From the IMG/VR virus record IMGVR_UViG_3300042691_024284, positions 759 through 64,758 of that record: a DNA stretch of 64,000 bases. One strand, given 5' to 3'. The DNA comes from a virus (Duplodnaviria; Caudoviricetes). The notes under the pieces were generated by a model. That model worked only from the letters and a program-made list of their open reading frames with translations. It was not told the origin of the DNA and made no database searches. Positions 12,926 to 51,221 of this stretch are shown here, in pieces; the stretch's first letter is position 1; every line of letters begins with the position of its first letter. The position numbers and the translations under genes were made by a program.

Positions 12926-14155
12926 TTAATATCCTTCTGTCCAATAAAGGAGTACGGCTCCGTCGCCGCCTTTGCCGCTATTTATTGATGCTGAACTATC
13001 ACTTCGTTGACCAGCACCGCCGCCACCGCCATTCCCACCGGGTCCCCCGAACGGTGTCGAGCTTGAAACTTGAGCGCCGCCACCGCCACCGCCAAAACCA
13101 CCCGGACCACCAAATGTTTGAGCGTTACTAGTATTAGCGCCGCCGCCACCACCACCAAAACCGCCTGGGCCTCCAAATGCAAAATTGCTGCTGCTTTGTG
13201 CCCCGCCTCCGCCGCCGCCAAAACCACCAGAACCGCCGTTAGAATCAAACGATGTGCTTGGTCCTCCGCCGCCACCACCTCCACACAATGCCCAATACGC
13301 AAGGTAAGGAGATGCAAGACTTAACCCTCCTTGCGTACTAGTTGCTACAGGGACGCTTTGACCGCCGCTAGTTCCCACAAAATTTGTTGTTACTCCGCCT
13401 CCTGGTCCACCACCATTTCGACCATTGCCATCGCTTGCTGATCCACCACCACCGCCCGCACTCGAAGCAGATCCATTTTTTAACCCGCCTCCACCTGAAC
13501 CGCTTGGCCCTTGAGGCCCAAAACCGCCGCTACCACCAAAACCACCCCCACCCGTTCCGTTTTGGCTAGTTGAAGTAGATCCTGCGGGTCCGCCATTTCC
13601 CCCATTACCATAAATAGACCCCGCTCCTCCGCCGCCAGTACCTCTGATATCTGAACCAGAGCTGCTTGAATACCCACCGTAACCGCCAGTAGCGGTATAG
13701 GCTTGCCGAAGCCCTCCAGATGCTGTGCCTGTACCGGGACTTCCGGGTGAAGTACTGTTAGTTATTGACCCACCGCCGCCGCCGGTAGAAGTTAAGAGAG
13801 TGCCAAATGATGATGTTCCGCCAGAAGCTCCAGAAGATTGAGTGCTAACTCGTGCTGCTCCTCCAGCGCCAACAGTAATTGTCGGCAACACCTGCCCTGG
13901 AACTACATCAATAATGCCTTGAGCGTAACCACCGCCATCACCCCCGCGAGCATATTGACCAGAATAACTACTACCAGCACCGCCAGATCCACCAGCACCC
14001 CAAACGCAAACCATAATTTGATACACGTTTGCTGGAACAACAAAGTCGTTATACGTACCCGCAATAACATACGGGCGGCAATTAGTCCAAGCAGCAGGCG
14101 CTACACGGGTTGCATAGTTAGGCGGCAACCCAAAGCCGTACATTCCCTTGTTCAT
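12926..14155 (-). CDS. Glycine-rich fibre protein
   Basis: VWGAGGSGG, ITVGAGG, repeated GGFGGGGGG, C-terminal GGDGAVLLYW. Confidence 0.7.
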   Translation of the reverse strand: MNKGMYGFGLPPNYATRVAPAAWTNCRPYVIAGTYNDFVVPANVYQIMVCVWGAGGSGGAGSSYSGQYARGGDGGGYAQGIIDVVPGQVLPTITVGAGGAARVSTQSSGASGGTSSFGTLLTSTGGGGGSITNSTSPGSPGTGTASGGLRQAYTATGGYGGYSSSSGSDIRGTGGGGAGSIYGNGGNGGPAGSTSTSQNGTGGGGFGGSGGFGPQGPSGSGGGGLKNGSASSAGGGGGSASDGNGRNGGGPGGGVTTNFVGTSGGQSVPVATSTQGGLSLASPYLAYWALCGGGGGGGPSTSFDSNGGSGGFGGGGGGAQSSSNFAFGGPGGFGGGGGGANTSNAQTFGGPGGFGGGGGGAQVSSSTPFGGPGGNGGGGGAGQRSDSSASINSGKGGDGAVLLYWTEGY

Positions 14156-32724: not shown

Positions 32725-34164
32725 CTACTGAGCGTACGGGTTGTAGCGTTGCTTGCTGCGATCATCTGCGTAGTCATAGTCGCGCGCTGGCAGCGGATCA
32801 AGCTGTATCCACCCCGAGTCACGCAGCACGCGCAGCGCTTGGGACAGGCTGTCCACGTAGTCATCGTGTCCCCCAGACTCGGGAAACGCACAGACCTGGC
32901 GCAGAAAACGTTTGGCCCACTCGGCGTACTCGCCGTCCTTTTTGGCATCCTCCGGTATGTACACCTTGCCCTTTGCTATGAGAGGCGCCACGATGTTGAT
33001 ACGCTGCACCTTGTCCGCTCTACCAGGGTTGTACGCCCTGACCGGCACGCCGGCACCTTGCAGCTCCTGGATGAGCGAGATACCAGCCGACTTATCCTCC
33101 ATCAGAATCAAGTCCGCCTTTCTGCCTTTGGCAAACGTGTTATCCGCGCCGTACACAACCTCTTTAAAGTCGTTGATTACCTTTTTGCGCAGCTCCGGAT
33201 ATGACAGGTGCGCGTCCCATGCGTCTAGCAAGATGATGCACGTGCCCTTGTCCTGGTTCTCAAACACGCCCCACACCTCACAGGCTGTCGGGTCGTTGTG
33301 TGTCTTCTCGCTGGTAGCCGGGTCGTATGACGCAATCACATACTCCAGCGTTGGCGTTTCCTTTTTGGACGGCCACATCTTAAACCACTTGCGCTTTACA
33401 ATCCCCGCGTCCTCCGGGTTTAGGATCTCGCCATAGATCTCCTGCTTACCCAGGTCTGTGCCTTCGTACGTCTCAAGCTGCTTGAAAAACGTCGCTGACA
33501 GGTTTTGACGGTTATCATAAGACGACGCGTTCACCATGTACACGTCGCCCCCGACCTTCCCTTCAGCCAGATCGACAATTAACTCCTTTGGCTTAGGCGT
33601 AGTGGTTATGATCTGCTGCACCCGGGCTATGTTTGGGTGCTTTAAGCGCAGGGTGAACTGCACTTGATCGTACGCATCGTCGATGTACTCGAATGCGCAC
33701 AGCTCATCAAACCAGGCCCCGTGAAACTGCTTGCCTCGATACCGCTCTGGCTCAGAGCCGGGTATGCCCTGGATGATAGAGCCGTTGATTAGCGTCACCT
33801 CAAAGAGCGATTTGTTGTAGTCCTGGATTAACGAGTGCGGGATGATGTTAAGCAATCCCGAGTCACCCTCAAAACACGTCGCCCGGATGTCATTTGACGT
33901 CGGCGCTGTCACTAACCACCTCGTTTGCGCGTTTTTCCACGCCCGAATCCCAATCCAGTGGCTTGCGGTGTGCGTTTTGCCTGATCCGCGGCCGGCAAGC
34001 ATCAAAAACGTGTCATATTCGCCGCCGTCCGGCTCTCTTTGGTGTCCCAAAGCGCTTAATTCCCATCTAACCTGCCACAAAGCCGCGTCTAGCTGCGGTT
34101 TTGGCCAGTGTTTGTTGTTCTTCGCAAAATCCGCCAGGATTTTTTCTTGCTTTTTGCTCAACAT
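32725..34164 (-). CDS. terL: Terminase large subunit
   Basis: Walker A AGRGSGKT, Walker B WFDE, TTTP coupling motif; nuclease motifs SYDPA, EDKSAG and HDDYVDS. Confidence 0.95.
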   Translation of the reverse strand: MLSKKQEKILADFAKNNKHWPKPQLDAALWQVRWELSALGHQREPDGGEYDTFLMLAGRGSGKTHTASHWIGIRAWKNAQTRWLVTAPTSNDIRATCFEGDSGLLNIIPHSLIQDYNKSLFEVTLINGSIIQGIPGSEPERYRGKQFHGAWFDELCAFEYIDDAYDQVQFTLRLKHPNIARVQQIITTTPKPKELIVDLAEGKVGGDVYMVNASSYDNRQNLSATFFKQLETYEGTDLGKQEIYGEILNPEDAGIVKRKWFKMWPSKKETPTLEYVIASYDPATSEKTHNDPTACEVWGVFENQDKGTCIILLDAWDAHLSYPELRKKVINDFKEVVYGADNTFAKGRKADLILMEDKSAGISLIQELQGAGVPVRAYNPGRADKVQRINIVAPLIAKGKVYIPEDAKKDGEYAEWAKRFLRQVCAFPESGGHDDYVDSLSQALRVLRDSGWIQLDPLPARDYDYADDRSKQRYNPYAQ

Positions 34165-35120
34165 ATTGAGATAAATCCCTCACTTGCCAGAAAAGGCCGG
34201 TCCGCAATGACATGAACGCACTGCTTAGGGTCGATTTTCTTGATTTTTCGTATGTATCTGCGCTTTAAGCGCCCGTTTTTGTCATCTAACCTGAACGCCA
34301 GCTTGTAGTTTGACGTATTCTCAGGCAAATACAGCATCGTCTTACACCCAAACGACTCAACCAGCGCCTGGTAGCGCCTGATTGTGGGGTAGTGCGCGTC
34401 GTAGATGCAGTATTTTTTGTACTCCTCGTCCCATCTGACGTACGAGTTGGCATCAATTAGCCCCTCGAGCAACTCCCTTCGCTGTTCCGGTGAGCTCTCG
34501 ATGTAACTAAACGGCAGCGTCGTTGGGATGTCGGCCCCAGCAAACAAAAACGTGTCCTTAATCGACGGCCGAAACTCAAACATCAGTTTGCGGTGTCTGG
34601 ATCTGCCCACCTTTATAAAAAACCCGTGCCGCCTGCAGCGCTTCCTAACCTTCTCCACATCCATCTTACCTACCAGGTTTAGGCCCGACGGTCGCAGTGA
34701 GCCTAACCACACACCCATCACGTAGGGCGGCACCGGCAGATCCTTCCATGTGTAACGCAGCGGCTCGCACACTTGTATGGACCAAGTCTTAGGCTCGCCC
34801 TTAACCAGCTCATCGACAGCCAGGATCTTTGGCTGCGATCTCAGCGGTTTGGAATACTTTTTGCCGCGGTTCTTCACCCACCTCGACAGATTGTCTCTAT
34901 ACGTCTTGTCTTGTAGCGGGAGCGTCATGTGCGCATCACCTACCAGGTCCAGCCCATCGTCGAACGCCACCTGATAGCACGCGCTCGGTATGTACTGCTG
35001 CACCGATCTCACCGGCTGGGCGCAGCCCTCTTGGTCAAAAACTAGATCACCAGGGCGTAGATCGATTGCCCGTCGCCAGCCATCAAGCGTTGGTATTGGC
35101 GTCGTTGCTGCTAGGCCCAT
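34158..35120 (-). CDS. Free-standing degenerate intein-like protein (Hint plus LAGLIDADG remnant)
   Basis: L..TTPIPT.DGW...DL.PGDLVF...G, LPVPPY.MG.WLG, S.EQRRELLEGLID and block F-like C-terminus; lacks the terminal His-Asn. Confidence 0.75.
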   Translation of the reverse strand: MGLAATTPIPTLDGWRRAIDLRPGDLVFDQEGCAQPVRSVQQYIPSACYQVAFDDGLDLVGDAHMTLPLQDKTYRDNLSRWVKNRGKKYSKPLRSQPKILAVDELVKGEPKTWSIQVCEPLRYTWKDLPVPPYVMGVWLGSLRPSGLNLVGKMDVEKVRKRCRRHGFFIKVGRSRHRKLMFEFRPSIKDTFLFAGADIPTTLPFSYIESSPEQRRELLEGLIDANSYVRWDEEYKKYCIYDAHYPTIRRYQALVESFGCKTMLYLPENTSNYKLAFRLDDKNGRLKRRYIRKIKKIDPKQCVHVIADRPFLASEGFISIC

Positions 35121-35307
35121 GCCTTTTTGTCTTCTTTCTTTTCCGGTCGTTTAACAGCGCGCGCTGGGATGCGCCAGGGGACAACCAAATTTCCTTAAAG
35201 TATCCATCGAGCTTGCGCTTATTGGTGTACGCAAAAAAGATATAACCGTCCTTGCGCAGATCTCCTCTGTGGAAGTGCACGTTTGTTTCTGGGTTAAGTC
35301 GCTTCAT
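35083..35307 (-). CDS. Small basic hypothetical protein
   Basis: RBS GGAGG and promoter motif upstream; first gene of the late operon. Confidence 0.65.
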   Translation of the reverse strand: MKRLNPETNVHFHRGDLRKDGYIFFAYTNKRKLDGYFKEIWLSPGASQRALLNDRKRKKTKRHGPSSNDANTNA

Positions 35308-35324
35308 ACCAGGCCTCCATATAC

Positions 35325-35335
35325 CTACTAATGCA
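35325..35335 (-). promoter_or_regulatory. Phage-specific promoter motif TGCATTAGTAG
   Basis: Repeated motif at the head of the minus-strand operon. Confidence 0.7.
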
Positions 35336-35352
35336 AAAAATAAATGGGGACA

Positions 35353-35573
35353 GCTGTCAAGGGTTGCGGGGGTTGCTGGGGTCTAAACCAGGTCCGTCTC
35401 TCTTTTTGTTTTTTCTTTTTTCTAAAAAAAAATAAAAGTGAAATAGACCCCAGCAACCCCCGCAACCCTTGACAGCAGAAAAATTTTATCAACAAAATCA
35501 ACAACTTACAAAAACGCGGTATAGAGAAAAATGACCCTTATACCCTTGACACGACCCCGGCAACCCTTGACAA
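35353..35573. repeat. Origin-like element, copy L: perfect 33-bp inverted repeat around a 58-bp AT-rich spacer, IHF site and third iteron block
   Basis: Arms at 35353-35385 and 35444-35476; WATCAANNNNTTR at 35496-35508; block at 35542-35573; inverted homolog at 43201-43419. Confidence 0.9.
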
Positions 35574-35593
35574 CTTGTACGCACAAGCAAAAG

Positions 35594-35624
35594 TTATCCA
35601 AAGTTATCCACAGAGTTATCCACA
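35594..35624 (+). promoter_or_regulatory. Three tandem DnaA boxes
   Basis: TTATCCAAA 35594, TTATCCACA 35604, TTATCCACA 35616. Confidence 0.8.
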
Positions 35625-35775
35625 GGTTGCCTATTTTTGCGATTGTCTCTATACCTGTCTCTATACCTAAAAAAATATAAAAAATTGCAAAAACTGGCGG
35701 TTTGGGGTGGGGCCACCGCCGCCCTCCCCGACAGGACCCGTTCAGGTGTATCGTCCCTATTTTCGACCCCGGCCC

Positions 35776-35970
35776 TGCTGCAGCGCACCAATTTGCTGCA
35801 TTGCACCACCCCCAGTTAGCGCTCACTAACTTTGTGCAGTGCAACATGTTAGTGAGTACTAACTAACCTACGTGCTGCAGTGCAGCACCCCCAGTTAGCG
35901 CTCACTAACATACATGCTGCATTGCACCACCCCCAGTGAGCGCTCACTAACCTAATTGCCGCGCTGCAAT
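35776..35970. promoter_or_regulatory. PhaR-like TGC-N3-GCA sites (5 clear, 1 degenerate)
   Basis: Sites at 35776, 35794, 35832, 35873, 35915 and (35957); fit TGCRNYGCASMA. Confidence 0.6.
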
Positions 35971-36121
35971 ATGTGAGTGAGCACTCACTGACATATAGGC
36001 AAGACCCCTAGCAAGAATCATGCCAGCTTGGGCAGGCACGCATATTGCCCTAGCAAGAATCATGCCAGCTTGGGCATGCAAGAATCGTGCCAGATTGCCG
36101 GCTAAGTGAGTGAGTACTCGC
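35815..36121. promoter_or_regulatory. Six SlmA-binding-site-like palindromes
   Basis: GTTAGCGCTCAC 35815, GTGAGTACTAAC 35852, GTTAGCGCTCAC 35894, GTGAGCGCTCAC 35936, GTGAGCACTCAC 35977, GTGAGTACTCGC 36110; consensus GTGAGTACTCAC. Confidence 0.75.
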
Positions 36122-36164
36122 GTGCGCGAGCTAGAGATCTGGGCATAAAGCAAAAAACGTGCCC
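36011..36164. promoter_or_regulatory. Five sigma54 (-24/-12) elements
   Basis: Minus strand: TGGCATGATTCTTGC (36011, 36053), TGGCACGATTCTTGC (36078), GGGCACGTTTTTTGC (36150). Plus strand: AGGCACGCATATTGC (36034). Confidence 0.75.
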
Positions 36165-36193
36165 GCGCTCCGGATCCGGCAGGCATAAAAAGT

Positions 36194-36216
36194 ACCCTGA
36201 AAAAACCAGTATAGTG
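36194..36216 (+). promoter_or_regulatory. Early promoter-like repeat ACCCTGAAAAAACCAGTAYARTG, copy 1
   Basis: 3 copies (36194, 37053, 38563), each ending in a -10-like hexamer upstream of a gene or RNA. Confidence 0.7.
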
Positions 36217-36243
36217 AGACCATTACATATAGGAGATCTCACC

Positions 36244-36990
36244 ATGCTAAAAAAACCTAAGACCCTGCTATCAGTCGACACGAATGCCAAGACCGTTAAA
36301 GGCCAAACACTGGGTTTTCTCACTGGCATTTTATATCTGGCGCCGTCGGACCAATCGGGCCATCAGATCTGTCCCATGGCCAAGCTTGCACAATGCGAGG
36401 CACCATGCCTCTACACTGCCGGCCGTGGCGCCATGTCATCAGTGCAGCGCGCACGCCTAAATCGTACAGCGCTCTTTTTTAATGAGCGCGAATGGTTTAT
36501 GCAACAGCTAGTGCAGGACGTCGCCTCGTTAGTCCGTAAGGCAGCGCGGCGAGGCATGACCCCGTTAGTCCGCCTCAATGGCACGTCCGATATTCGCTGG
36601 GAAAATATTCGCATGGCCGACGGCCGAACCATTTTCGAGATCTTCCCGGACGTGCAGTTTTACGATTACACGAAGCTTGCCAATCGTCGCGACGTCCCTG
36701 CCAATTACGATCTGACGTTTTCTTACTCCGGCGCTGCAGGGTTTCGCGATTATGCGCGGCGTGCAATTGATGCAGGCATGCGCGTCGCCGTCGTTTTCCG
36801 CACGCGTGAGTCTATCCCGGAGACATTCGAGGGCATGCAGTGCATTGGCGGAGACGATAGCGACGTGCGTCATCTTGAACCCCGTGGCGTCGTCGTCGCG
36901 CTGTACGCTAAAGGTCCTGCACGCCGTGACGTGTCGGGTTTCGTGATCGACAGCGCGCCGCGCGTGATCCCGATCAAGCTTGCAGCGTAA
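36244..36990 (+). CDS. Gp88-like protein (radical-SAM-like Cys motif)
   Basis: CP.A....C...CL..AGRG, RLNGTSDI.WE, VQFYDYTK and NY.LTFS motifs; RBS AGGAGA before 36244. Confidence 0.75.
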   Translation: MLKKPKTLLSVDTNAKTVKGQTLGFLTGILYLAPSDQSGHQICPMAKLAQCEAPCLYTAGRGAMSSVQRARLNRTALFFNEREWFMQQLVQDVASLVRKAARRGMTPLVRLNGTSDIRWENIRMADGRTIFEIFPDVQFYDYTKLANRRDVPANYDLTFSYSGAAGFRDYARRAIDAGMRVAVVFRTRESIPETFEGMQCIGGDDSDVRHLEPRGVVVALYAKGPARRDVSGFVIDSAPRVIPIKLAA

Positions 36991-36994
36991 TCCA

Positions 36995-37046
36995 GCATCA
37001 CTGATGAGGCCTGAATGGCCGAAACCCCGGCGACGGGGTCTGATGC
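36995..37046 (+). ncRNA. Type I hammerhead ribozyme HH1
   Basis: GCATCA-CTGATGA-GGCC(TGAAT)GGCC-GAAA-CCCCG(GCGA)CGGGG-TC-TGATGC. Confidence 0.92.
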
Positions 37047-37052
37047 AAAACC

Positions 37053-37075
37053 ACCCTGAAAAAACCAGTACAATG
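37053..37075 (+). promoter_or_regulatory. Early promoter-like repeat, copy 2
   Basis: -10-like TACAAT. Confidence 0.7.
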
Positions 37076-37101
37076 CAACACCACAACACGGAGAAAACAC
37101 C

Positions 37102-37275
37102 ATGAGCACACCACAGACCCCGATCACTGTCAGCATGTTGTCCGAGTACTTGCGCGGCGATAGCTGTTCCGAATTACAGGCATTCAGCGCCATGGCCATG
37201 CTGGCCGAAATCCTAAACGGCGAGATCGATCTCGAGCAGATCCGCCTCAGCGTGCTAGCGGAGACCCAACCATGA
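37102..37275 (+). CDS. Small early protein, 57 aa
   Basis: Repeated leader CAACACGGAGAAAACACC-ATG. Confidence 0.65.
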   Translation: MSTPQTPITVSMLSEYLRGDSCSELQAFSAMAMLAEILNGEIDLEQIRLSVLAETQP

Positions 37276-37460
37276 GCGAGCAGCAAGTAATTCGCCACAG
37301 CAAAGGGCCCGAGGGCTGGGCCCGCGCCACCATGGGCCCGATCAACGGCCGGCACTGGGACGCCACAGATCGACAGTGGATCCAGTGGCTGCAGGATCAA
37401 GGGCAGGACGTCGTGACAATCGGCGACACCATGTATCAGATCGTCACGCCGCGCGAATAG
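37272..37460 (+). CDS. Small early protein
   Basis: ATGA overlap with upstream gene. Confidence 0.6.
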   Translation: MSEQQVIRHSKGPEGWARATMGPINGRHWDATDRQWIQWLQDQGQDVVTIGDTMYQIVTPRE

Positions 37461-37511
37461 CATCACTGATGAGGCCTAAGTGGCCGAAACCCCGGCGACG
37501 GGGTCTGATGC
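37460..37511 (+). ncRNA. Type I hammerhead ribozyme HH2
   Basis: Same core as HH1; loop II is TAAGT. Confidence 0.92.
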
Positions 37512-37534
37512 ATACAACACGGAGAAAACACACC

Positions 37535-37741
37535 ATGCAAAACTGGCAATTAATAGATGCAAACAATAGCCCGGTAGCTATCGGCGACGCTATCGTTTCA
37601 TTTCGCGGCGAGCAGGCCACACTCAAGGGCTGCAGCCCTCCGCAACATGCGGGATCTACTGGCAGGGTTTACGTAGGCGGAGGAGAGTATTATCCGTCCG
37701 TGTACGGTTTGAAATGGGTCAGCATCACTGACGAGGCCTGA
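37535..37741 (+). CDS. Small early protein
   Basis: Repeated RBS leader; stop codon lies inside HH3. Confidence 0.65.
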   Translation: MQNWQLIDANNSPVAIGDAIVSFRGEQATLKGCSPPQHAGSTGRVYVGGGEYYPSVYGLKWVSITDEA

Positions 37742-37773
37742 ATGGCCGAAACCCCGGCGACGGGGTCTGATGC
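37722..37773 (+). ncRNA. Type I hammerhead ribozyme HH3
   Basis: Core CTGACGA (variable position 7 = C); stems intact. Confidence 0.92.
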
Positions 37774-37796
37774 ATATAACACGGAGAAAACACACC

Positions 37797-38588
37797 ATGA
37801 CAACAGAAAACGCACAATGGGCAGCGCTGCTGTCCGACGCTGTCAACAAACCCGGCATTCTGTCGAGCGCCTACTCGGCATTCCATAATTACAGCATCGG
37901 GAATCAGATGCTGGCTTGGGGTCAGCTACACCAGCGAGGAATTCCGCTCGGGCCAATTGCCACATTCAAAGACTGGCAAAAACTCGGCCGGCAAGTGAAA
38001 AAAGGCGAAAAGGCCATTTCTCTTGTCATGCCAGTGACAGTGAACAAAAAAGACGAGACCGGCGAAAAGACGGGCGACTCGTTTACATGGTTTGCGCTCA
38101 AACCCCGCTGGTTTGTGCTCAGCCAGACAGACGGCACTGACTACGTACACGAGGCCAAGACGCCAGACTGGGACCCTGCGCTGGCACTGGCAGCGCTCGA
38201 CATTCAGGAAATTCCATTCGAGAGCGCCGACGGCAATTGTCAGGGCTATGCATCATCGCGGCAGATTGCAGTTAATCCAATTGCTGCACTGCCGCATAAA
38301 ACGCGATTCCATGAGCTAGCGCACGTCGTGCTCGGCCACACTGCCGAGGGCACGATGCAAGACGACGAGCGCACGCCGCGGGACATTCGCGAAGTCGAGG
38401 CAGAGTGCGTCGCCTACATTTGTGTGTCCCTGCTGGGCTTGTCCGGACAGCAAGAGTCGCGCGGGTATATCCAGCACTGGCTAGCTGGCGCCGAGATCGG
38501 CGACAAATCAGCGCAGAAAATATTCGCCGCCGCGGACAAGATTCTGAAAGCTGGCAAAAACCACCCTGAAAAAACCAGTACAGTGTAA
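37797..38588 (+). CDS. ArdC-like antirestriction protein (ssDNA-binding N-domain plus HExxH domain)
   Basis: HNYS.GNQ.L, ATF..W..LGRQVKKGEKAI, FHELAH and E.EAE.VAY motifs. Confidence 0.8.
   Translation: MTTENAQWAALLSDAVNKPGILSSAYSAFHNYSIGNQMLAWGQLHQRGIPLGPIATFKDWQKLGRQVKKGEKAISLVMPVTVNKKDETGEKTGDSFTWFALKPRWFVLSQTDGTDYVHEAKTPDWDPALALAALDIQEIPFESADGNCQGYASSRQIAVNPIAALPHKTRFHELAHVVLGHTAEGTMQDDERTPRDIREVEAECVAYICVSLLGLSGQQESRGYIQHWLAGAEIGDKSAQKIFAAADKILKAGKNHPEKTSTV
38563..38585 (+). promoter_or_regulatory. Early promoter-like repeat, copy 3
   Basis: -10-like TACAGT about 11 nt before the structured RNA. Confidence 0.65.
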
Positions 38589-38595
38589 CGATCAC

Positions 38596-38705
38596 GGAGG
38601 CGGGGAAGTGCAGCCCAGAGAACGTGGATCACGGCATGGACTAATAACCTCCATGCTGCCACGGACGGGCAGGATCGGGAGCTAGCTGCCCGCCCGCCTC
38701 CACCA
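38596..38705 (+). ncRNA. Unknown 110-nt hairpin RNA ending in ACCA, copy 1
   Basis: GGAGGCGGG/CCCGCCTCC closing stem followed by ACCA; inner stems GCAGC/GCTGC, CGTGG/CCACG and CGGCATGGA/TCCATGCTG. Confidence 0.65.
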
Positions 38706-38726
38706 CCACAACACGGAGAAAACACC

Positions 38727-38999
38727 ATGCAAAAAACATTCTACTTCATCACAGACCCCGGCCACGGCTGGGTCAAAGTGCCGGTCAATTTGCTGCATAC
38801 ACTCGGCATCGCCGACAAAATCTCGCTGTACTCGTACCAGCGCGGCGACTTTGCGTATCTCGAAGAGGATCAAGACGCCTCGCTGTTTCATCGCGCGTTT
38901 TTCGATAAGTACAACAGATTTCCGGTGTATCGGGAGCAAAACAGCATGCACAAATACTCGCGTGTTCGCGGGTATGACATCTACAGGAGCACACCATGA
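38727..38999 (+). CDS. Early hypothetical protein
   Basis: DPGHGW.KV and YLEED.D motifs; repeated RBS. Confidence 0.7.
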   Translation: MQKTFYFITDPGHGWVKVPVNLLHTLGIADKISLYSYQRGDFAYLEEDQDASLFHRAFFDKYNRFPVYREQNSMHKYSRVRGYDIYRSTP

Positions 39000-40341
39000 A
39001 TAAGACAATCAACGACATATTCGACAAATACTTTGCCGACTGCGAGGCCGGCTACATGGAGGCAGAGCGCCGGCGCCTCGAGCGCGCCCGGCGCCGCGCA
39101 GAGCATGATAAAAATCTGCATAGCTGCGGGTTTCCTCCGCCTGCCGTTATCGATCTAGGCTATACCGACTACGCTAAAGACAGCGCCGCCGGTCTCAATA
39201 CAGACTAACCACAGGAGCACACCATGAGTAAGTACACCATGCACCCCTGCCGTGACGTCGGCGGGGGTGAAATCGAGCGCTGCGAGGCTTGCGAGGCCGA
39301 CATGTTCACGATCTATCGCATCGAAGCAGACGGGACCGAGACAGCCCACATCGACTACGAGTTTGAGGATTCAGTCGAGATGGTGTCTCAGTGGGCAAAC
39401 GCAACGCGCGAGCTAGAGCGCCTAAACAGGAGCACAGCATGACAACACAGGCAGAACAACCAAAAGTTCATCTACAGGGCATCAAGATCAAGGCCAAGAT
39501 CAATCTTACGGCTGACGATTGGCAGCTCTACTCCATACCCGGCCGAGATACGGCAGCACGCCGGATGAACCGGGCCATGGAGCGCAAGCTTGCCAAGGGA
39601 GAGCTAGGATCTCTGCTGGACATTCTTGAGCCATACAGCAAGTGGGGCGCCTGCGATAGCGAAAGCTATCACACCGTCTACGCTGTGCTTCGCCGGCTGG
39701 GTTTGGACGACGAGAAATTTGCGTAAAACCCCCGGCGATTCACCATATATTTGATAACGACAGGAGCACACCATGAAAGAAATAAAACCAGACCCCTACA
39801 TTCGCATGCTGGGCATGCCCGCCGAAGATCTGCGACAGCAGATCGCGCATAGACTGGAGTCGGGCGAGGATCTAATAATGATCATCGCCTCGACATTGTC
39901 CGACGCGCAGGAGCTAGTGCAGATGCGGGATCAAACCCGCGCTCTGCAGGCCATTAATCGGGCCAAATGGATTTTGTTTGAAAACAAAGAGGAGACAACG
40001 CTATGACAGTGCAATCATTCTGGAACAACGACAGCGACATGCAAGACGTCGCGGACGAGCTATCCAGTCTTGTGCCGGCCATGGGGCCAGTGCCCGATCC
40101 GCGCAAGAACAAGGCGCTCGAGCGCTTCCGTCGCGCGAGCAATTGCTACTATGACCTGTACAACAACGGGCTGGACAATCGCCGGCAAGAGTTTTATAGG
40201 TTATTCAAAATCCGCGTGAGCGACTTTTATAAACGCGGCCGTCGTCGTGACATCGACTTTGACAGGATCATGCCAGTCGTCGAGCCGGTCATGCGACAGT
40301 TTGTGCTGGATGCTGCAGCCGAGCAGGGCATCGAGCAATGA
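38996..40341 (+). other. Cluster of five small early ORFs (38996-39208, 39224-39442, 39439-39726, 39773-40006, 40003-40341)
   Basis: Tightly packed; most have the ACAGGAGCACA(C/G)CATG leader. Confidence 0.7.
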
Positions 40342-40346
40342 TCAAC

Positions 40347-40458
40347 GGAGGCGGGAAAGTGTGGCCTATGACGGTCCGGACAGCGGCGCAGGCATCAAAC
40401 CCTGCGTTGAAACCCCGGCCGGGGCGTAACGGGAATCACTGCCCCCCTGCCTCCACCA
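40347..40458 (+). ncRNA. Unknown 112-nt hairpin RNA ending in ACCA, copy 2
   Basis: GGAGGCGGG/CCTGCCTCC stem followed by ACCA; AGTG/CACT and CGGCGCAGG/CCTGCGTTG stems. Confidence 0.65.
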
Positions 40459-40471
40459 ACACTAAAAAAAG

Positions 40472-41360
40472 ATGACTAAAAAGACAGCAAAAAAGCTCGA
40501 AGACAGCCTGCAGCAGCTTTACGCAGAGCAGGAAGCCCTCGAGGCTACGATGGACCCGTGGAACCGGGAAACGGCCGTAAAGTGGCAGCAGCTTGAAAAC
40601 AAAATCCGCCAGCTTACGATGCAAATTGACATACTTCACATGAAAGAGGCACAGCATGAAAGTGATTCTGACCGTCTGTTATAACCCCGACATCGAGCAC
40701 GACGGCGACGAGGGTAAAAGCTTGATCGAGTTTTATTATCCGCCGCACATCAAAGACGCGCTCATCGAGTTGCTGGGTGCAACAAGCATCAAGGCTGAGG
40801 CCGTCTCAAGCCAGGAAGAGGAGGAGTAACCATGCCGGCAATCATTACAATCGAGCAGTCGGGCCACGAGTTGTGGGTCACAGGCGACGACAGCGCGCAG
40901 CATGCCGACTTCGAGGAGCAGATGTACACGCTGCCGTACTACGGCGAGGCAGTGCTTGCGAAAGATGCAGCACACGAGTATGCTATCGCATGGGCCGCGG
41001 CAGTCGGCGGCACCGTTGAATATAAATAAAGGAGTTACACCATGGCAACCAACACCATAACCACAAAAGAGGGCAGCAGCGTGTACATGACAGCGCACGA
41101 AGCTGGCATGCTCTTGGCTGTGTTTTCGGAAAATGTATCGCTCACACTCACATTCAAAGAGCAGGACGCGCGAGCTCTAGCAGAGCGTATAATTAACGCG
41201 CTGGACAATTTTAAATTAACCACAATCAAGGAGTAACACCATGAAACGAATTAACGTGCCAACCGAAGAGCTACTCGGTATAATCGAGTGGCTGGATGCG
41301 CTAAACGCTACGATCCACAGCATTGAAGATGATCGCGGCGGCAGCGACAGCTGGCTGATA
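40472..41360 (+). other. Cluster of small early ORFs (40472-40684, 40656-40829, 40832-41029, 41042-41236, 41241-41360)
   Basis: Most preceded by AGGAG-type RBS; tightly packed. Confidence 0.6.
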
Positions 41361-41394
41361 AATTACACAACCGTTAAAACTGAGGAGTAACACC

Positions 41395-41661
41395 ATGCAA
41401 AACTTCGGAATCAAGATTGACCCCGTACAATCCCGCGCACTGGCTGCGCGTCTCGAGCAGGCCAACGGGTTTGTGACCGTGACGTTCCTGAAAAAAGACG
41501 GCACCATTCGCAAGATGAATTGCCGCATGGGCGTCACAAAGTATTTAAAAGGTGGCGAGTCAAAGCTCAACGCTGAGCAGTACGTGACGGTTTTTGACAT
41601 AACCAAGAGTGCGTATCGCGCAATTAATCGCGAGACCATTCTCGAAGTGAAAGGGGTGTGA
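41395..41661 (+). CDS. WYL_2/Sm-like SH3 barrel protein
   Basis: V.F.KKDGT.R.M..R.GV and V.DI.K..YR motifs. Confidence 0.65.
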   Translation: MQNFGIKIDPVQSRALAARLEQANGFVTVTFLKKDGTIRKMNCRMGVTKYLKGGESKLNAEQYVTVFDITKSAYRAINRETILEVKGV

Positions 41662-41662
41662 G

Positions 41663-42010
41663 ATGCGTTACTCAGTAAGCGGAATAAAAGATTCCGACAC
41701 TTCGGTTTATGATCGCGACATCGACTGCTGGTATATGAAACAAAACGTCATCGCGTTCACGGGCCTATGCCAAGTCCGCGGCGAGCGTGACGTGTTTTTT
41801 GGCGGCGAGGAGAGCCGGCCGTATCGCTCGAGGGTCCTGCTGAACCCGACGTGGCGGCAGCTCTTCAACGCAGCCAAAAAGCAGCAGCAGGCCACCAAAG
41901 ACTGGCACCATGATTTCTTTGAGGGCTATATCGACAGGGGCGAGGATGACTTCTCCGTACATCCACACAACCTGCCCGTTCGAGTGATCGAGCTTGTACT
42001 GGGGTCATGA
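41663..42010 (+). CDS. Hypothetical protein
   Basis: 115 aa coupled ORF. Confidence 0.6.
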   Translation: MRYSVSGIKDSDTSVYDRDIDCWYMKQNVIAFTGLCQVRGERDVFFGGEESRPYRSRVLLNPTWRQLFNAAKKQQQATKDWHHDFFEGYIDRGEDDFSVHPHNLPVRVIELVLGS

Positions 42011-42242
42011 GATGGAAAACAACACAACGCGCCGCCGCGGCATTGTTCTGTCCCTAAGCGGCATTGAGTACATCGTTTATACTTGTGTTGCTTTGGCAAT
42101 TTTAATCGTGGCCTGCATGGCCATACTGGAGCTGCTATGAAGATGCTCGGATTTTTAATGATGCTGTTTGGTTTTTTGTTAACCACGCAGGGCACGTCGT
42201 GGAATGCGCTCATGCTCATGGGCGGCGGCGCCGCGCTAATTT

Positions 42243-42830
42243 ATGGAGCGTACAGATTTGAAAAGAGATAAGACCGCGCTGTCTGACTATATCCGGGTGC
42301 TTTACAGGCACACGGTGCTGCCAGTACAGGAAGAAGAGCGGCTATCGAAGATGATACAGGCCGGAGACAACGCCGCATTGGAAAAGCTAGTGCGGCACAA
42401 TCTCCGGTTTGTCGTTTCGGTGGTCAAAGAAATGCCAATCTGGCAAAACGGCTCGGTGCCGTTCGAGGACATCGTTGCTATCGGTAACGAGTCGCTGCTG
42501 AAAGCAGCCCGCAAGTGGGTGCCAAAAAATGGGGCTCGGTTTGCCACGTACGCCAAGCCATTCATTATCAAGGGAATCAGGAGGGCTCTTGATAATGAGT
42601 GGTCAATGATCCGCGTGCCGGTGAACATCCTCGAAGAGATCCGCCGCATGAAGTATCTCGAGCGGGTTTTGTCGCAAGAGTTAAAACGGGACCCGACAGC
42701 CAGGGAGATTGCAGACCGGATGAAAGTGCACGAAAGCAGGATCACGGAGCTGCAAAATCTCCTGACCCTGGAGCCGGTGTCGCTTGAGGCCTACAACCAA
42801 GAGAAATTCCACGAGGAGAGCGAAGAATGA
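42243..42830 (+). CDS. Sigma70-family factor with regions 1.2, 2 and 3 but no region 4
   Basis: EE..L...IQAGD.AA..KLV.HNLRFVVSV, G.RFATYA...I, IRVP and R.PT..EIA; ends shortly after PVSLE. Confidence 0.88.
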   Translation: MERTDLKRDKTALSDYIRVLYRHTVLPVQEEERLSKMIQAGDNAALEKLVRHNLRFVVSVVKEMPIWQNGSVPFEDIVAIGNESLLKAARKWVPKNGARFATYAKPFIIKGIRRALDNEWSMIRVPVNILEEIRRMKYLERVLSQELKRDPTAREIADRMKVHESRITELQNLLTLEPVSLEAYNQEKFHEESEE

Positions 42831-43178
42831 AGCCAATCCAAAAAGAGGTTTACGATGACCGCGGCAATCTCAAGATCATCGAGGTAATCGACGCAGAAAC
42901 CAGCAAACACATTGCAGACTTTCTGTGGGACCCGCACGATGCGCAGACGCCGGAGAATCGCAATAAGTTTAGGGACTGGGTAGTTAACTGGATTAACAAT
43001 CGCATGAAAGGAAAAAGAGATGGAAACTAGGCAAGAGCTGATTCTAAAATTCATGCTGGCTTTGGCCAGCTCGAGTGAGGTCACAAGGCTGTTTGCACAA
43101 AACGACAGCACCCTCGTGGCCAGCAGGATATACCTCAATGCGGCAAAACTTGCCGATCAATACATCGAGGGAGTGTAA
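42827..43178 (+). other. Two small ORFs (42827-43030, 43020-43178)
   Basis: Overlapping start and stop codons. Confidence 0.55.
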
Positions 43179-43181
43179 TGC

Positions 43182-43202
43182 AAATGAGAATCATTCGCAT
43201 TT
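43182..43202. promoter_or_regulatory. Fur-box-like site
   Basis: AAATGAGAATCATTCGCATTT near-palindrome. Confidence 0.6.
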
Positions 43203-43419
43203 GTCAGGGGTTGCCGGGGTCGTGTCAGGGGTAGAGACGCGATTTTCCATATACTACCCCCTTTGCAACCCATTGATTTAATTGAAGAAAAAATTTGCTG
43301 TCAAGGGTTGCGGGGGTAGCGGGGGTCTATTTCACTTTTATTTTTTATTTTGAAAAAAGAAAAATAAATTTAAGAGGGAAGTACGTTTAGACCCCAGCAA
43401 CCCCCGCAACCCTTGACAG
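43201..43419. repeat. Origin-like element, copy R (inverted relative to 35353-35573)
   Basis: Block at 43201-43232; IHF site 43266-43278 (minus); arms at 43297-43329 and 43388-43419 around a 58-bp AT-rich spacer; abuts the primase gene. Confidence 0.9.
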
Positions 43420-43441
43420 AGTTAAAGTAAAACATTAAGTT
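43413..43441 (+). promoter_or_regulatory. Putative sigma70 promoter for primase, with -35 inside the repeat arm
   Basis: TTGACA-17 nt-TAAGTT. Confidence 0.5.
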
Positions 43442-43459
43442 TGTATAAGTTGAGGAACC

Positions 43460-45766
43460 ATGACCAGACCAACAGCTTTGCCGGTGCAATTTGACCAGAT
43501 CCCCATGACGCTGAAGATGATTCCGCGCTGGGTAGTCTGGCAATTTGTCGAGGTGGAAACCGCCGATGCCCGCAAATGGGCTAAAATTCCCCTACAAGCC
43601 GCTACTGGACTTCGTGCTAGTAGCACCAACCCCGACACGTGGGCAGACTTCCTAACAGCCCAAAAAGCCTATCAGACGGGCAAGTATGATGGCGTCGGAT
43701 TTGTCTTCATCAATTCTGACAACCTGGTAGGCGTCGATTTGGACGATTGTTTGTCCGAAAATGGGCAAATCACTAGCCCTGATGCAGCCACGATGCTGGA
43801 AAACATCGACGGCTACGCTGAAAAGAGCCCATCAGGAACCGGCGTGAAGATCTTCACGAGGACCACGCTGCACTCAGCCCACGTTGACCACAGCAAAGGC
43901 CTGGAGATCTACCCACACGCCCGATACTTTACAGTGACGGGCCATTATCTGCAGGGTGCCATACCCGAGCATGAAATTGATCTGTCCCCATTTATTCCGC
44001 CGCGCACGATCCATCGCTCGGGGGATGACTTCGCGGACTACACGCCGCCGGTGGAGGAGTATGACCTGGCCAGGGTGGAGCGGGAGATCCTCGCTAACCT
44101 GGACCCCGACTGCGGCTACACAGACTGGCTGACAGTGGGCATGGCCATGCACCACCAGTTCCAAGGCTCGGACGATGCGCTCGAGATGTGGGACAACTGG
44201 TCCTACCAAAATGGGGACTGTCCCTCATATTCACCCAACGAGTGCCGGCGCAAGTGGTCAACGTTTTCCAAAAAGGGCGGGGCCACGCTGCGCTCGTTGA
44301 TCTTCAAAATTAACCAAGTAAAAAAGCAGGAGGCCCTAGCACGTGGCGAGATCGTGCTAGACCAGGCCCCGCTGGACCACGCTCGCCAGTTCCTCGAGGC
44401 TAACCACACAACCGAGGAGGGCGTGCGGCTGGTGCACTACGCAGAGGACTACTTCGTGCACAAGGCCACGCACTACGAGGAGATTGAAGAGGCGACGATA
44501 CGCTCGCAGCTCTACAAGTTCCTCGACAAGTGCAAAAAGACAGACCGGCGAAGTAACTTGCTGCCGTTCATGCCAACGCCGGCGACGGTGACCGCGGCGC
44601 TCGACGCAACCAAAGCGCTCGTGCACCTGGAGAATCACCCCAACACCAAACCGCCGGTGTGGTTAGATGGTTACGCTAACGGCAAGCCCGCAGCATCGAA
44701 GCTGATTAGCGTAAAAAATGGGCTTTTCCATTTGGAAGAGTCGGTGCTGCTGCCACACAGCCTGGGGTTTTTTACGCAGAACAGTTTGCCGTTCGAGTAT
44801 GACCCCAAGGCAGCGTGTCCGACGTGGGAGAAGTTTCTCACGCAGATATGGGGCCACGATCAGGAGTCAATCGACACACTGCAAGAGATCTTCGGCTACG
44901 TCTTATCGGGCGACACGCGGCAGCAGAAATTTTTCAACGTGATCGGTCCGCGCAGATCAGGCAAGGGCACGATCAACAAGGTGCTCGTGGAGCTGCTGGG
45001 TCAGCACAACACAGTCGCACCAGAATTAGGAGAGCTCTGTGATACTTTCGGTCTTCAGCCTTGGCTGGGCAAGTTGCTCGCTAGTTTTACGGACGCACGA
45101 GCGCCTGAACGGAATCGAAGTGCTGTTGTCTCTCAGCTTTTAAGGATTGTAGGGGGCGACACGGTAACGGTGAACCGCAAAAACAAAGAGGCCTGGAACG
45201 GCTACTTGCCAACGCGGATCATTGTTTACTCAAACGAGGTCCTGCAGCTGACAGAAAACTCAAACGCGCTGACAGGCCGCATGATTGTGTTAAAGATGAC
45301 GCAGTCGTTTTACGGCAAAGAGGATACCGAGCTTGCCGCCAAACTGATGAAGGAGTTATCCGGCATCTTTAATTGGAGCATGGTCGGCCTGCGGCGCCGG
45401 ATGGAGCGGGGCGGGCACTTCCTGCAGCCAACCAGCGGCATCGATTTGCTGGAGATCATGGAGGATCTGTCCAATCCGATCAATCTGTTTTATCGTGATG
45501 TGCTCATGGAAGACCCCGAGGGATCAGTCGATAAAGATGATCTGTTTAAAGTCTTCAAAAAGTGGTCGCAGGAAAAAGGCATGCACCCTGGCACCGATTT
45601 ATCATTTAAGCGTAAGTTCCTCGCAGCAACGCAAGACAAGCCCATTACAACGGCAGTGTCGAGGGTTGAGGGCCGGCGTGAGAATGTGTATCGCGGGGTG
45701 AAGCTGACCGATAAGGCACAAAGTTTTGTCAATAGTCTAAGTGAATTTAACGAAAGGATTTTCTAA
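43460..45766 (+). CDS. Primase-polymerase / PriCT-2 / D5-like SF3 helicase fusion
   Basis: GVDLDDC, E.SPSG.G, W..VGMA.H and Walker A GPRRSGKGT motifs. Confidence 0.92.
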   Translation: MTRPTALPVQFDQIPMTLKMIPRWVVWQFVEVETADARKWAKIPLQAATGLRASSTNPDTWADFLTAQKAYQTGKYDGVGFVFINSDNLVGVDLDDCLSENGQITSPDAATMLENIDGYAEKSPSGTGVKIFTRTTLHSAHVDHSKGLEIYPHARYFTVTGHYLQGAIPEHEIDLSPFIPPRTIHRSGDDFADYTPPVEEYDLARVEREILANLDPDCGYTDWLTVGMAMHHQFQGSDDALEMWDNWSYQNGDCPSYSPNECRRKWSTFSKKGGATLRSLIFKINQVKKQEALARGEIVLDQAPLDHARQFLEANHTTEEGVRLVHYAEDYFVHKATHYEEIEEATIRSQLYKFLDKCKKTDRRSNLLPFMPTPATVTAALDATKALVHLENHPNTKPPVWLDGYANGKPAASKLISVKNGLFHLEESVLLPHSLGFFTQNSLPFEYDPKAACPTWEKFLTQIWGHDQESIDTLQEIFGYVLSGDTRQQKFFNVIGPRRSGKGTINKVLVELLGQHNTVAPELGELCDTFGLQPWLGKLLASFTDARAPERNRSAVVSQLLRIVGGDTVTVNRKNKEAWNGYLPTRIIVYSNEVLQLTENSNALTGRMIVLKMTQSFYGKEDTELAAKLMKELSGIFNWSMVGLRRRMERGGHFLQPTSGIDLLEIMEDLSNPINLFYRDVLMEDPEGSVDKDDLFKVFKKWSQEKGMHPGTDLSFKRKFLAATQDKPITTAVSRVEGRRENVYRGVKLTDKAQSFVNSLSEFNERIF

Positions 45767-46487: not shown

Positions 46488-47448
46488 GTGAAGATAAAAG
46501 TGAGTGGCGTTCCCTACGAGGTTGAAACGCTAGCCCTACGCAAAGCAGCAGAGTTAGCGTTGGATGCGTTAGATATTTACCGTGAACATGATGCTGAGAA
46601 CATTGGGTTGGCAGATGCGGCATACGAAGCACTACGCCAAGCACTAGCGCAACCGGAATGGGTTGGGCTGACGGATGAGGATTTGGAACCTATGTGCGAT
46701 GACTGGAGAATTGTTTTTGGCTCATATGTGCATGATTTTGCCAAAGCGATTGAAGCCAAAATAAAGGAGAAGAACACATGACTGACCTACGCAAAGCAGC
46801 AGAGATGGCGTTAAAAGTTTTGAATGTTGGGTCTAATGAAGTTATCCCAAATAATTACGAAAAAATGGCTAGTGAAGCAGCCAGACGCCTTAATGATGCG
46901 TTATCTAATTTATCTACTTTGGAATGGTTCGATGCGCCAACAAAAACTGAATGGGGCGAAATGATGGTAAAGACCTCAATAGAAATTGATGCTAATCATT
47001 ACTTTGATGTGTATTGCGAAAGATCGCAAAAAGAAAATGTTGAATTATTGCTTGGAGTCAAAAAGCGTGAATGGGCTGGGCTAAGCCGTGACGAGGTTGA
47101 CTATTGTTTTGAGCAGAACGTGGTTAGAAAATTTGATCAAGACGGGACAGAGCAAGGATTTGTCAGCATCTATCAAGCAGCTCAAGCAATTGAAACCGAA
47201 TTAAAGGAGAAGAACACATGAGCAAGCAGGCACTAGACGCGCTTGGCGTTGCAATAACAAACGCAGGGTACACGTGGACACCTGAGATGCGAAGCGCTTA
47301 TGAAAAAGGTATTCGTGAGAGTGAATGGGTTGGGCTGACGGATGAGGAAATTGAGGAGTGCAAGATCAACGGCGGCTTACCACACGCCATCAATTGGAGG
47401 CTTTCTGTAAAGGTCATGCAAGCCAAACTAAAGGAGAAGAACACTTGA
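46488..47448 (+). other. Three paralogous small ORFs (about 46488-46781, 46778-47221, 47218-47448) sharing EW.GL..EE and ..KEKNT ends
   Basis: Repeated AAAGGAGAAGAACAC(A/T)TGA junction. Confidence 0.75.
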
Positions 47449-47696
47449 GCGACGGGGGCAAAGGCTCGGCGCCCAGGCCGATAGAAGATTGGGCGCGCTT
47501 TGAGAAAAATTGGGACGAGATATTTAAACCAAAAGTAAAGTCGCCATGCGTGGAGGTTTGCTTTTTAAACTTCGAGCAAGGCATGTGTATGGGCTGCAAG
47601 CGCACGTTAAACGAAATAGAAAACTGGTCCTCGATGAGCACAGAACAAAAACGCGCGCTCGTCGAGGCGTTGAAAACTAGGGAGCTGCATGGGTAA
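47445..47696 (+). CDS. DUF1289-like Cys protein
   Basis: SPC..VC......C.GC.RT..EI..W motif; TTG start at the repeat junction. Confidence 0.75.
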   Translation: MSDGGKGSAPRPIEDWARFEKNWDEIFKPKVKSPCVEVCFLNFEQGMCMGCKRTLNEIENWSSMSTEQKRALVEALKTRELHG

Positions 47697-51140: not shown

Positions 51141-51221
51141 GGGGTTGGAATAGTTTCGACGTGGGCCAAGGCCTAAGCGGCAACCTTGCGGACCTGGGTG
51201 CGATTCCCAGCAACTCCACCA
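51141..51221 (+). ncRNA. Minimal tmRNA-like RNA (tRNA-like domain only)
   Basis: GGGGTTG/CAACTCC-ACCA with G3.U70; TTTCGAC loop; GAC linker; T-arm CTGGG-TGCGATT-CCCAG. Confidence 0.8.

Follow-up and report, generated by a model that had tools for sequence, protein, structure and literature searches.

In prophages, multiple hammerhead ribozymes often flank individual genes or small groups of them (Perreault et al. 2011, PMC3088659). According to that report, three prophage triple arrays cut at all of their sites in vitro, a triple array of A. tumefaciens that flanks ardA also cuts in E. coli, and the implied role of such arrays is to turn long transcripts into gene-length mRNAs (Perreault et al. 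2011, PMC3088659). A 2019 review still describes the purpose of phage hammerheads as unsettled, and a literature search returned, beyond these two sources, no demonstrated function of a phage hammerhead and no bacterial hammerhead circles. Here we describe three hammerhead copies found at positions 36995 to 37773 of a 64,000-nt stretch of viral DNA (hereafter the window), which comprises bases 759-64758 of a 64,758-base IMG/VR record with direct terminal repeats (IMGVR_UViG_3300042691_024284). The source is a complete, uncultured tailed phage of 64.8 kb. The three copies are a clean further example of a layout that has been in print since 2011 and represent no new kind; they add a complete-genome example, and with it a large subfamily from uncultured phages, to the hammerheads that punctuate phage operons, and they open no new kind of biology.

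Like the published arrays, the locus contains several hammerheads on the coding strand within 1-2 kb, flanking genes of varying identity. Unlike those prophage arrays, its copies are all of type I, nearly identical, and located in a complete, non-integrated phage with direct terminal repeats. The association with anti-restriction genes is repeated as well: the array in print flanks ardA, and in the present locus the gene after the third copy is ArdC-like and belongs to a different family.

In phage T7, the host RNase III cuts the early message between cistrons, leaving 5'-phosphate and 3'-OH ends. The likeness to the present case lies in a long early message cut between cistrons, in the presence of an anti-restriction gene (the first gene in T7) and in a hairpin left at the 3' ends of the products; the difference is that a protein enzyme is at work in T7, whereas the phage RNA would be self-cutting, with 5'-OH and 2',3'-cyclic phosphate ends as the outcome. 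A first-pass annotation of this DNA, made by a model from the letters alone, had proposed self-processing of the early mRNA by analogy with the T7 sites. Taken as an analogy, the proposal is reasonable and plausible, and it coincides with the standing printed hypothesis for clustered phage hammerheads.

Two further systems bear comparison. The glmS ribozyme also cleaves the bacterial mRNA that contains it, with the 5'-OH deciding the fate of the downstream message, but there the cut depends on a metabolite and destabilises the mRNA. Retrozymes and viroid-like RNAs likewise carry repeated hammerheads with an identical stem I that bound short RNA units; these are, however, non-coding or replicating RNA elements of eukaryotes, whereas the units described here are segments of phage mRNA encoded on a DNA genome.

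Results and Discussion

Architecture of the three ribozymes

The three copies occupy 779 nt, all on the plus strand like the open reading frames (ORFs) around them, and bound one block of two ORFs and one block of a single ORF:

36995-37046, + strand: hammerhead HH1, type I, predicted cut after C 37040
37460-37511, + strand: hammerhead HH2, type I, predicted cut after 37505
37722-37773, + strand: hammerhead HH3, type I, with C at N7, predicted cut after 37767

Each copy is 52 nt long and contains the motifs CUGA-N-GA and GAAA, a C at position 17 and the pairs G10.1-C11.1 and A15.1-U16.1, meaning that the full set of core positions (C3 U4 G5 A6 N7 G8 A9, G12 A13 A14, A15.1-U16.1 and an H17 that is not G) is present in all three. 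Stem I is open in every copy and has 6 bp (GCAUCA/UGAUGC), and stems II and III each end in a loop, which is the type I architecture. Stem II consists of 4 bp (GGCC/GGCC) with a 5-nt loop, and stem III of 6 bp, the A15.1-U16.1 pair included, with a GCGA loop of the GNRA type. The copies differ from each other solely at N7 (U, U and C, in order) and at two positions of loop II (UGAAU, UAAGU and UGAAU). HH1 is flanked by a conserved A (36994) on its 5' side and by AA (37047-37048) on its 3' side. The predicted cuts are spaced by 465 nt (first to second) and 262 nt (second to third), and the fragments between them carry whole ORFs. Several of these points had been read from the letters in the first-pass annotation: the complete cores and stems are borne out by the sequence and by minimum-energy folding, the restriction of the differences to N7 and loop II is confirmed by aligning the copies, and the cut sites and fragment lengths are correct.

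Such a cluster is not expected by chance. The core pattern occurs three times in the window versus a mean of 0.03 over 100 shuffled versions, none of which reached three, and in the entire 64,758-base record it was found three times on the forward strand and never on the reverse. The minimum-energy fold of every 52-mer is exactly the hammerhead secondary structure, at -24.1 kcal/mol, with z-scores of -3.46 for HH1, -3.73 for HH2 and -4.21 for HH3.

From a gap-free alignment of 35 copies of the family described below we built a covariance model, R1. When applied to the window, R1 found just the three copies (82.7 bits for HH1, 80.0 for HH2 and 82.0 for HH3), the next best score being 10.7 bits, about 70 bits lower. 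The check that the first-pass annotation had suggested, a search with the Rfam hammerhead models, gave a different outcome: no Rfam 15 hammerhead family (RF00163, RF00008, RF02276, RF02275, RF02277, RF03152) reached its gathering score on the window, and the weak matches all came from RAGATH-1-hammerhead (RF03152), whose threshold is 56.3 bits and which scored 26.7, 21.2 and 19.5 bits. Over the whole record, the type I model RF00163 returned nothing at E <= 10. An E-value scan of 35100-43500 with Rfam models gave RF03152 again, together with chance matches of the hairpin type, and no further ribozyme class. The copies share the catalytic core and the three-way junction with the Rfam families RF00163, RF00008, RF02276 and RF03152, and RF03152 can be aligned to all three over the core, stem III and stem I, but the upstream hairpin and the one-pair stem II of RAGATH-1 are absent here. 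Because the gathering scores are not reached, we file the copies under the ribozyme class by structure and assign them to no Rfam family. The same gap in annotation extends to related phages: eight related loci contain 32 type I copies, and Rfam 15 called none of these at gathering score; they and the three window copies are thereby missed, even though a simple family model sets the window copies apart by some 70 bits.

A type I subfamily in uncultured phages

A scan of viral contigs with a pattern covering the core and stem II matched at least 118 contigs; the family counts given from here on are among the matches listed, in which many contigs bear 2-5 copies. With a script that required the core, the stems and U-H, we recovered 146 type I copies from the listed loci and the window, of which 113 are unique when their flanks are taken into account. 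The least biased count is that of the pattern matches themselves, 83 of 114 unique, non-edge matches having the full type I stems I and III. From the remaining 31 sites, 8 were folded, and all 8 proved to be type III hammerheads.

As a side observation, type III hammerheads were retrieved through the core and stem II pattern in loci L097, L035, L059, L031, L079, L069, L104 and L012, the unique sites numbering about 31 overall. In most of them loop II reads C-A-G-N-A, the 3' strand of their stem III leads straight into the next Shine-Dalgarno motif, and they likewise go uncalled by Rfam. Two of these loci also carry type II hammerheads that Rfam does call (L031 6181-6249 and L035 3108-3173), meaning that hammerheads of differing types can occur on one phage contig.

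In the alignment of 35 type I copies, 99.5% of the cells pair and 14 of the 16 pairs show changes on both sides, a level that none of 500 shuffles matched; since the aligned rows had been filtered beforehand for pairing, this covariation count is biased, and only the diversity of pair types is informative. A less biased test is offered by copies picked by synteny. A hammerhead lies directly 3' of the gene for a GP88-family protein in the window and in five relatives (GP88 74-81% identical), and among these hammerheads stem I varies by three compensated pairs and every core position is invariant.

Stem I is exactly 6 bp long in 105 of the 113 unique copies. The base on its 5' side is A in 106 of them and the base on its 3' side is A in 100, while H17 is occupied by C in 100, by A in 12 and by U in one. 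Loop II mostly reads U-N-A-N-U, and its first base covaries with the base 5' of stem I (A/U 98, U/A 4, other 3; n = 105), the U/A cases possibly representing one or two lineages. A mutual-information analysis aimed at a pseudoknot between loop II and the flanks gave nothing clear beyond this one pair of positions. All three window copies fit the pattern of flanking A, 6-bp stem I and loop II, and the core and the contact pattern are retained across contigs whose proteins are just ~40% identical. To judge from the covarying bases, the pattern looks like a tertiary contact between loop II and the end of stem I, short of proof. Contacts of this sort make natural hammerheads fast at low Mg2+, as stated in the 2011 report (Perreault et al. 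2011, PMC3088659).

Judged by the core, the stems, the fold, the conservation across the family and the compensatory changes, the three copies are genuine type I hammerhead ribozymes. Their subfamily seems to reside mainly in uncultured, non-integrated phages, as seen with patterns that are narrow. A blastn search against GenBank phages returned no match for 36000-39000, nor for the 58-nt ribozyme, and a still narrower pattern (a fixed stem II and a U-N-A-N-U loop, which undercounts) applied to the representative genomes of 185,579 prokaryote species, matched just one contig, which is metagenome-assembled.

R1 also matches the Pseudomonas phage PaP3 (NC_004466) at 44038-44109 on the minus strand, between orf66 and orf67 (21.5 bits, E = 0.0024), a stretch not labelled in the record that we take to be a region of small early genes. 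As in the window, a type I-like hammerhead stands there between two small ORFs; unlike in the window, it occurs as a single copy, its loops II and III have 12 and 23 nt rather than 5 and 4, and the phage is unrelated. The PaP3 hammerhead was tested and placed among variants with core changes, according to Perreault et al. (2011, PMC3088659).

Placement at gene junctions

The genes and repeats that surround the ribozymes are the following:

36244-36990, + strand: gene of the GP88 family (Pfam PF17338, E = 1.2e-42), directly upstream of HH1
37102-37460, + strand: two overlapping small ORFs (57 and 62 aa), which make up the coding part of the 465-nt fragment
37535-37741, + strand: small ORF of 68 aa, the coding content of the 262-nt fragment
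37797-38588, + strand: ArdC-like anti-restriction gene (Pfam ArdcN 7.2e-13 and Peptidase_M78 6.3e-05; PHROG 7245 'anti-restriction protein' 4.1e-17)
37516-37537, + strand: leader with GGAG (37521-37524) and ATG, repeat families D3 and D5; the same leader follows HH3 at 37778-37799
37046-37085, 36187-36226 and 38556-38595, + strand: repeat D7, ~40 nt, just upstream of gene starts; one copy abuts HH1

HH1 starts 4 nt past the TAA at 36988-36990. HH2 begins with a G that also closes the TAG at 37458-37460, the stop codon of ORF 37272-37460, and loop II of HH3 holds the TGA (37739-37741) of ORF 37535-37741, the first 20 nt of this ribozyme being the coding C-terminus and stop of that ORF. Downstream of each copy there is a GGAG followed by an ATG (37102, 37535 and 37797, respectively 61, 29 and 29 nt past the cuts), and the end of the folded ribozyme is separated from the Shine-Dalgarno motif by ~15 nt. 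Each copy is located, as the first-pass annotation had stated, at a stop codon (TAA, TAG and TGA, in order) and upstream of the next ribosome-binding site.

The arrangement recurs throughout the family. A Shine-Dalgarno-like word and a start codon (>=40 codons, <=200 nt) follow 105 of 117 unique copies, at a median distance of 27 nt from the cut (quartiles 24-32), although 8 of these 105 starts, at 0-2 nt, are probably false starts within stem I. Upstream, in 107 of 114 copies, an open frame terminates within the interval from -5 to +21 relative to the first base of the ribozyme. The copies of any one locus are all on one strand, with spacings of 238-2032 nt. A stop codon, a ribozyme, ~27 nt with a ribosome-binding site and a start codon thus form a fixed module. 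The 6-bp stem I with its flanking A's, the U-N-A-N-U loop II, the internal stops and a start codon ~27 nt past the cut are features that provide experimental handles on the question of why phages place self-cutting RNA between their genes.

The coding content of the module is varied. The 97 unique proteins encoded downstream of the listed ribozymes are mostly small (median 82 aa) and unnamed, the names being limited to GP88 (seven), DUF932 (three) and ArdC-N (one, the gene of the window itself). Homologues of the window's GP88 protein, 74-81% identical, occur in loci L120, L016, L100, L030, L063, L105 and L077. The 68-aa ORF at 37535-37741 has homologues in 11 loci (38-63% identity), and in 11 loci the ends of these homologues coincide with or fall within a hammerhead. 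For the 62-aa ORF there are homologues in two loci, and for the 57-aa ORF there is one weak homologue; a Pfam search assigned no family to the 57-aa, 62-aa or 68-aa ORF. The ArdC-like protein combines an ArdC N-terminal domain with a zincin-type peptidase domain, and its gene starts 29 nt past the third cut. Further copies of the leader are found at 37085-37104 and 38710-38729 without a ribozyme.

Proposed processing of the early message

The explanation that we favour, and that we consider probable given the observed motif, its conservation and its fixed intergenic placement, is that the ribozymes cut an early polycistronic message into gene-sized mRNAs. What we infer for this phage, namely cleavage, the chemistry of the ends and the effects on stability and translation, can be set out as follows. 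Each ribozyme would fold locally during transcription and cut itself after C17 (37040, 37505 and 37767), yielding a GP88 mRNA, a 465-nt RNA with two ORFs, a 262-nt RNA with one ORF, and an RNA with the ArdC-like gene and the sequences downstream. Because of the type I architecture, 46 of the 52 nt would remain attached to the upstream product at its 3' end, where both hairpins and the 2',3'-cyclic phosphate could hinder 3' exonucleases and polyadenylation. The downstream product would begin with a 5'-OH and a short leader containing a ribosome-binding site, 29 nt long after copies 2 and 3 and 61 nt long after copy 1. The likely benefit would be that the stability and the translation of each cistron are uncoupled from those of its neighbours.

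In hosts with RNase E-type enzymes, a 5'-OH should slow the decay that depends on the 5' end. A stabilising effect of the 5'-OH ends in this phage is nevertheless pure conjecture, and the destabilising 5'-OH of glmS calls for caution before stabilisation is assumed in whatever host it uses.

Several observations weigh against the processing explanation. The folding of the copies in context is mixed, with the reservation that these thermodynamic predictions cannot decide how the RNA folds during transcription: with flanks of 30-60 nt, the hammerhead pairs have mean probabilities of 0.95-0.96 in HH1, 0.57 in HH2 and 0.61-0.67 in HH3, but in HH1 the value falls to 0.24 and 0.00 when the flanks are extended to 100-150 nt, and in an 831-nt transcript the fold is retained by HH1 and HH2 and lost by HH3. 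Since translation of ORF 37535-37741 continues into HH3 and covers its first 20 nt, any copy still uncut would be melted by ribosomes. The one argument for activity at physiological Mg2+ is the putative tertiary contact, and the tight spacing to the start codons may merely reflect how compact the intergenic regions of phages are. Repeat D7 lies directly after HH1; were it a promoter, processing at that site would matter less. D7 is possibly a phage-specific promoter or another signal, and a scan with the sigma-70 consensus did not call it. The unreached Rfam thresholds belong on the same side of the balance.

Other explanations deserve to be weighed against this one. It is unlikely, in our judgement, that the ribozyme and its leader are essentially a self-spreading or recombination module, a joint for the exchange of cassettes in which cutting brings little benefit. 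Copies within a genome are indeed more alike than orthologues are, those of the window sharing identical stems I and III, and HH2 and HH3 are part of a 79-nt unit with 95% identity. Gene order around the ribozymes also varies; for example, the homologue of ORF 37535-37741 precedes a homologue of ORF 39224-39442 in locus L100, and the ArdC-like gene in the window. In addition, metagenome contigs of related strains are joined at or near the repeats (36983 to 37457, 37104 to 37721 and 36235 to 37721), a weak hint, given the low depth and short sides, of cassette gain or loss by recombination, or equally of an assembly effect. However, the placement is always on the sense strand and at gene junctions, and the retention of core and contact pattern at ~40% protein identity argues for selection on catalysis and not for a repeat alone. 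Rather unlikely, too, is a gating of the cut by translation, whereby termination of the upstream gene inside the ribozyme would control its folding and the cut would free the next leader, timing gene n + 1 by the translation of gene n. According to a crude rule based on the longest open frame, 65 of 114 copies contain the upstream stop within the ribozyme; this stop is the core TGA (end at +10) in 17 copies and the one in loop II (+20/+21) in 22, HH3 included, and the Shine-Dalgarno motif begins only ~15 nt past the folded ribozyme. Still, no pairing between ribozyme and Shine-Dalgarno sequence was seen, in a genome this compact the overlaps may amount to no more than a second use of TGA triplets, and gating cannot cover all copies, given that HH1 is wholly outside the upstream ORF and HH2 shares with it a single base of the stop codon. 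The related idea that the phage-only type I subfamily would be a fixed-geometry cassette, in which termination upstream gates both the cut and the translation of the next gene, we likewise regard as unlikely.

The first-pass annotation was upheld by core, stems, conservation and compensation in its identification of hammerheads at gene junctions, but not in its suggestion that the 465- and 262-nt fragments could be circularised by an RtcB-type ligase. We find it very unlikely that these fragments become circular mRNAs, whether their ends are joined by the reverse hammerhead reaction or by a host RtcB. The 5'-OH and 2',3'-cyclic phosphate ends would be compatible in the window, where the stem I shared by all three copies would allow each excised fragment to rebuild a hammerhead around its own ends, and circles bounded by hammerheads are known from retrozymes and viroids. 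Among neighbouring pairs of copies, stem I matches fully in 25 of 48, versus 6.3% of random pairs taken across contigs; local duplication explains this excess equally well, and the other 23 pairs are mismatched. In contrast to retrozymes, therefore, compatibility of stem I is not conserved in the phage family, and one lineage (L018, L072 and L118) has four differing stems I in a conserved order, which implies that circles cannot be the general function. Searches of the phage detected neither RtcB nor an RNA ligase of either family sought (PF09414 and PF09511), and spliced or circular products were sought in comparable arrays and none detected, according to Perreault et al. (2011, PMC3088659). 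Were circles nonetheless formed, they would be small, exonuclease-resistant circular mRNAs with a ribosome-binding site, made early in infection. Least credible of all, and in our opinion extremely improbable, is that the copies are non-catalytic structured spacers, such as protective hairpins or protein-binding sites, that happen to resemble hammerheads. The failure to reach any Rfam hammerhead threshold would agree with such spacers, and stem III, a stable GC hairpin with a GNRA loop, could by itself protect a 3' end; yet 13 unpaired core nucleotides are invariant across the family while the stems vary, and hairpins need none of them.

Genome setting and other features

From position 1 to ~35120, genes for structure and packaging (tail fibre, portal, and a terminase in two pieces) occupy the minus strand. 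On the plus strand, the block from 36244 to 58590 opens with many small genes, after which come those for primase, helicase, exonuclease, ribonucleotide reductase and DNA polymerase. The ribozymes sit at the beginning of the plus-strand block, and for this reason the label 'early operon' is fair but unproven. The two blocks are separated by a repeat-rich region, which contains one promoter-like sequence:

35469-35498, + strand: within the divergent region, a sigma-70-like promoter (TTGACA, 18 nt, CAAAAT) by consensus match only

By its match to the consensus, this is a candidate start for the operon. The promoter-like match recurs at 43388-43419, upstream of the primase gene, as part of repeat D20. 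Portal protein, tail fibre, primase and DNA polymerase are all encoded, the best match to the DNA polymerase being 37.4% identical. A search with PF00940 (T7-type RNA polymerase) gave no match, and its positive control matched no genome either.

Two long regions capable of forming hairpins (35350-35479 and 43275-43442) carry an identical 32-nt repeat, D20, with a TTGACA box, and are located upstream of the early block and of the primase gene, respectively. Their matches to microRNA-precursor and small-RNA models were at chance level; they may be regulatory or origin-like structures.

The large terminase appears to be split over the adjacent minus-strand ORFs 34158-35120 and 32725-34164 (32725-35120 overall). 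Residues 3-228 of ORF 34158-35120 match PHROGs of the terminase large subunit and, by eye, its first residues resemble the start of an intein (Hint) domain. On the same strand, ARAGORN called a 92-nt tRNA-Ser with anticodon ACT at 13634-13725; this call falls inside a 409-aa ORF (12926-14155) and is probably false.

At 51141-51221 on the plus strand, between the helicase and exonuclease genes, Rfam called a transfer-messenger RNA (tmRNA) with 53.3 bits versus a threshold of 47. The match involves the two ends of the model alone, 19 nt apart, and corresponds to an 81-nt tRNA-like domain with no tag reading frame. This domain has a 7-bp acceptor stem with a G3-U pair, a T arm and a 3' ACCA; it was not called by ARAGORN, and its fold showed no greater stability than those of shuffled sequences (z = -0.54). 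Judged from these features, it could be a mini tmRNA-like RNA of the phage or a tRNA mimic.

Finally, at 46656-47463 on the plus strand, a region containing a gene start is repeated three times in tandem (repeats D4 and D10, spacing ~230-440 nt), which suggests three paralogous small genes arranged in tandem.

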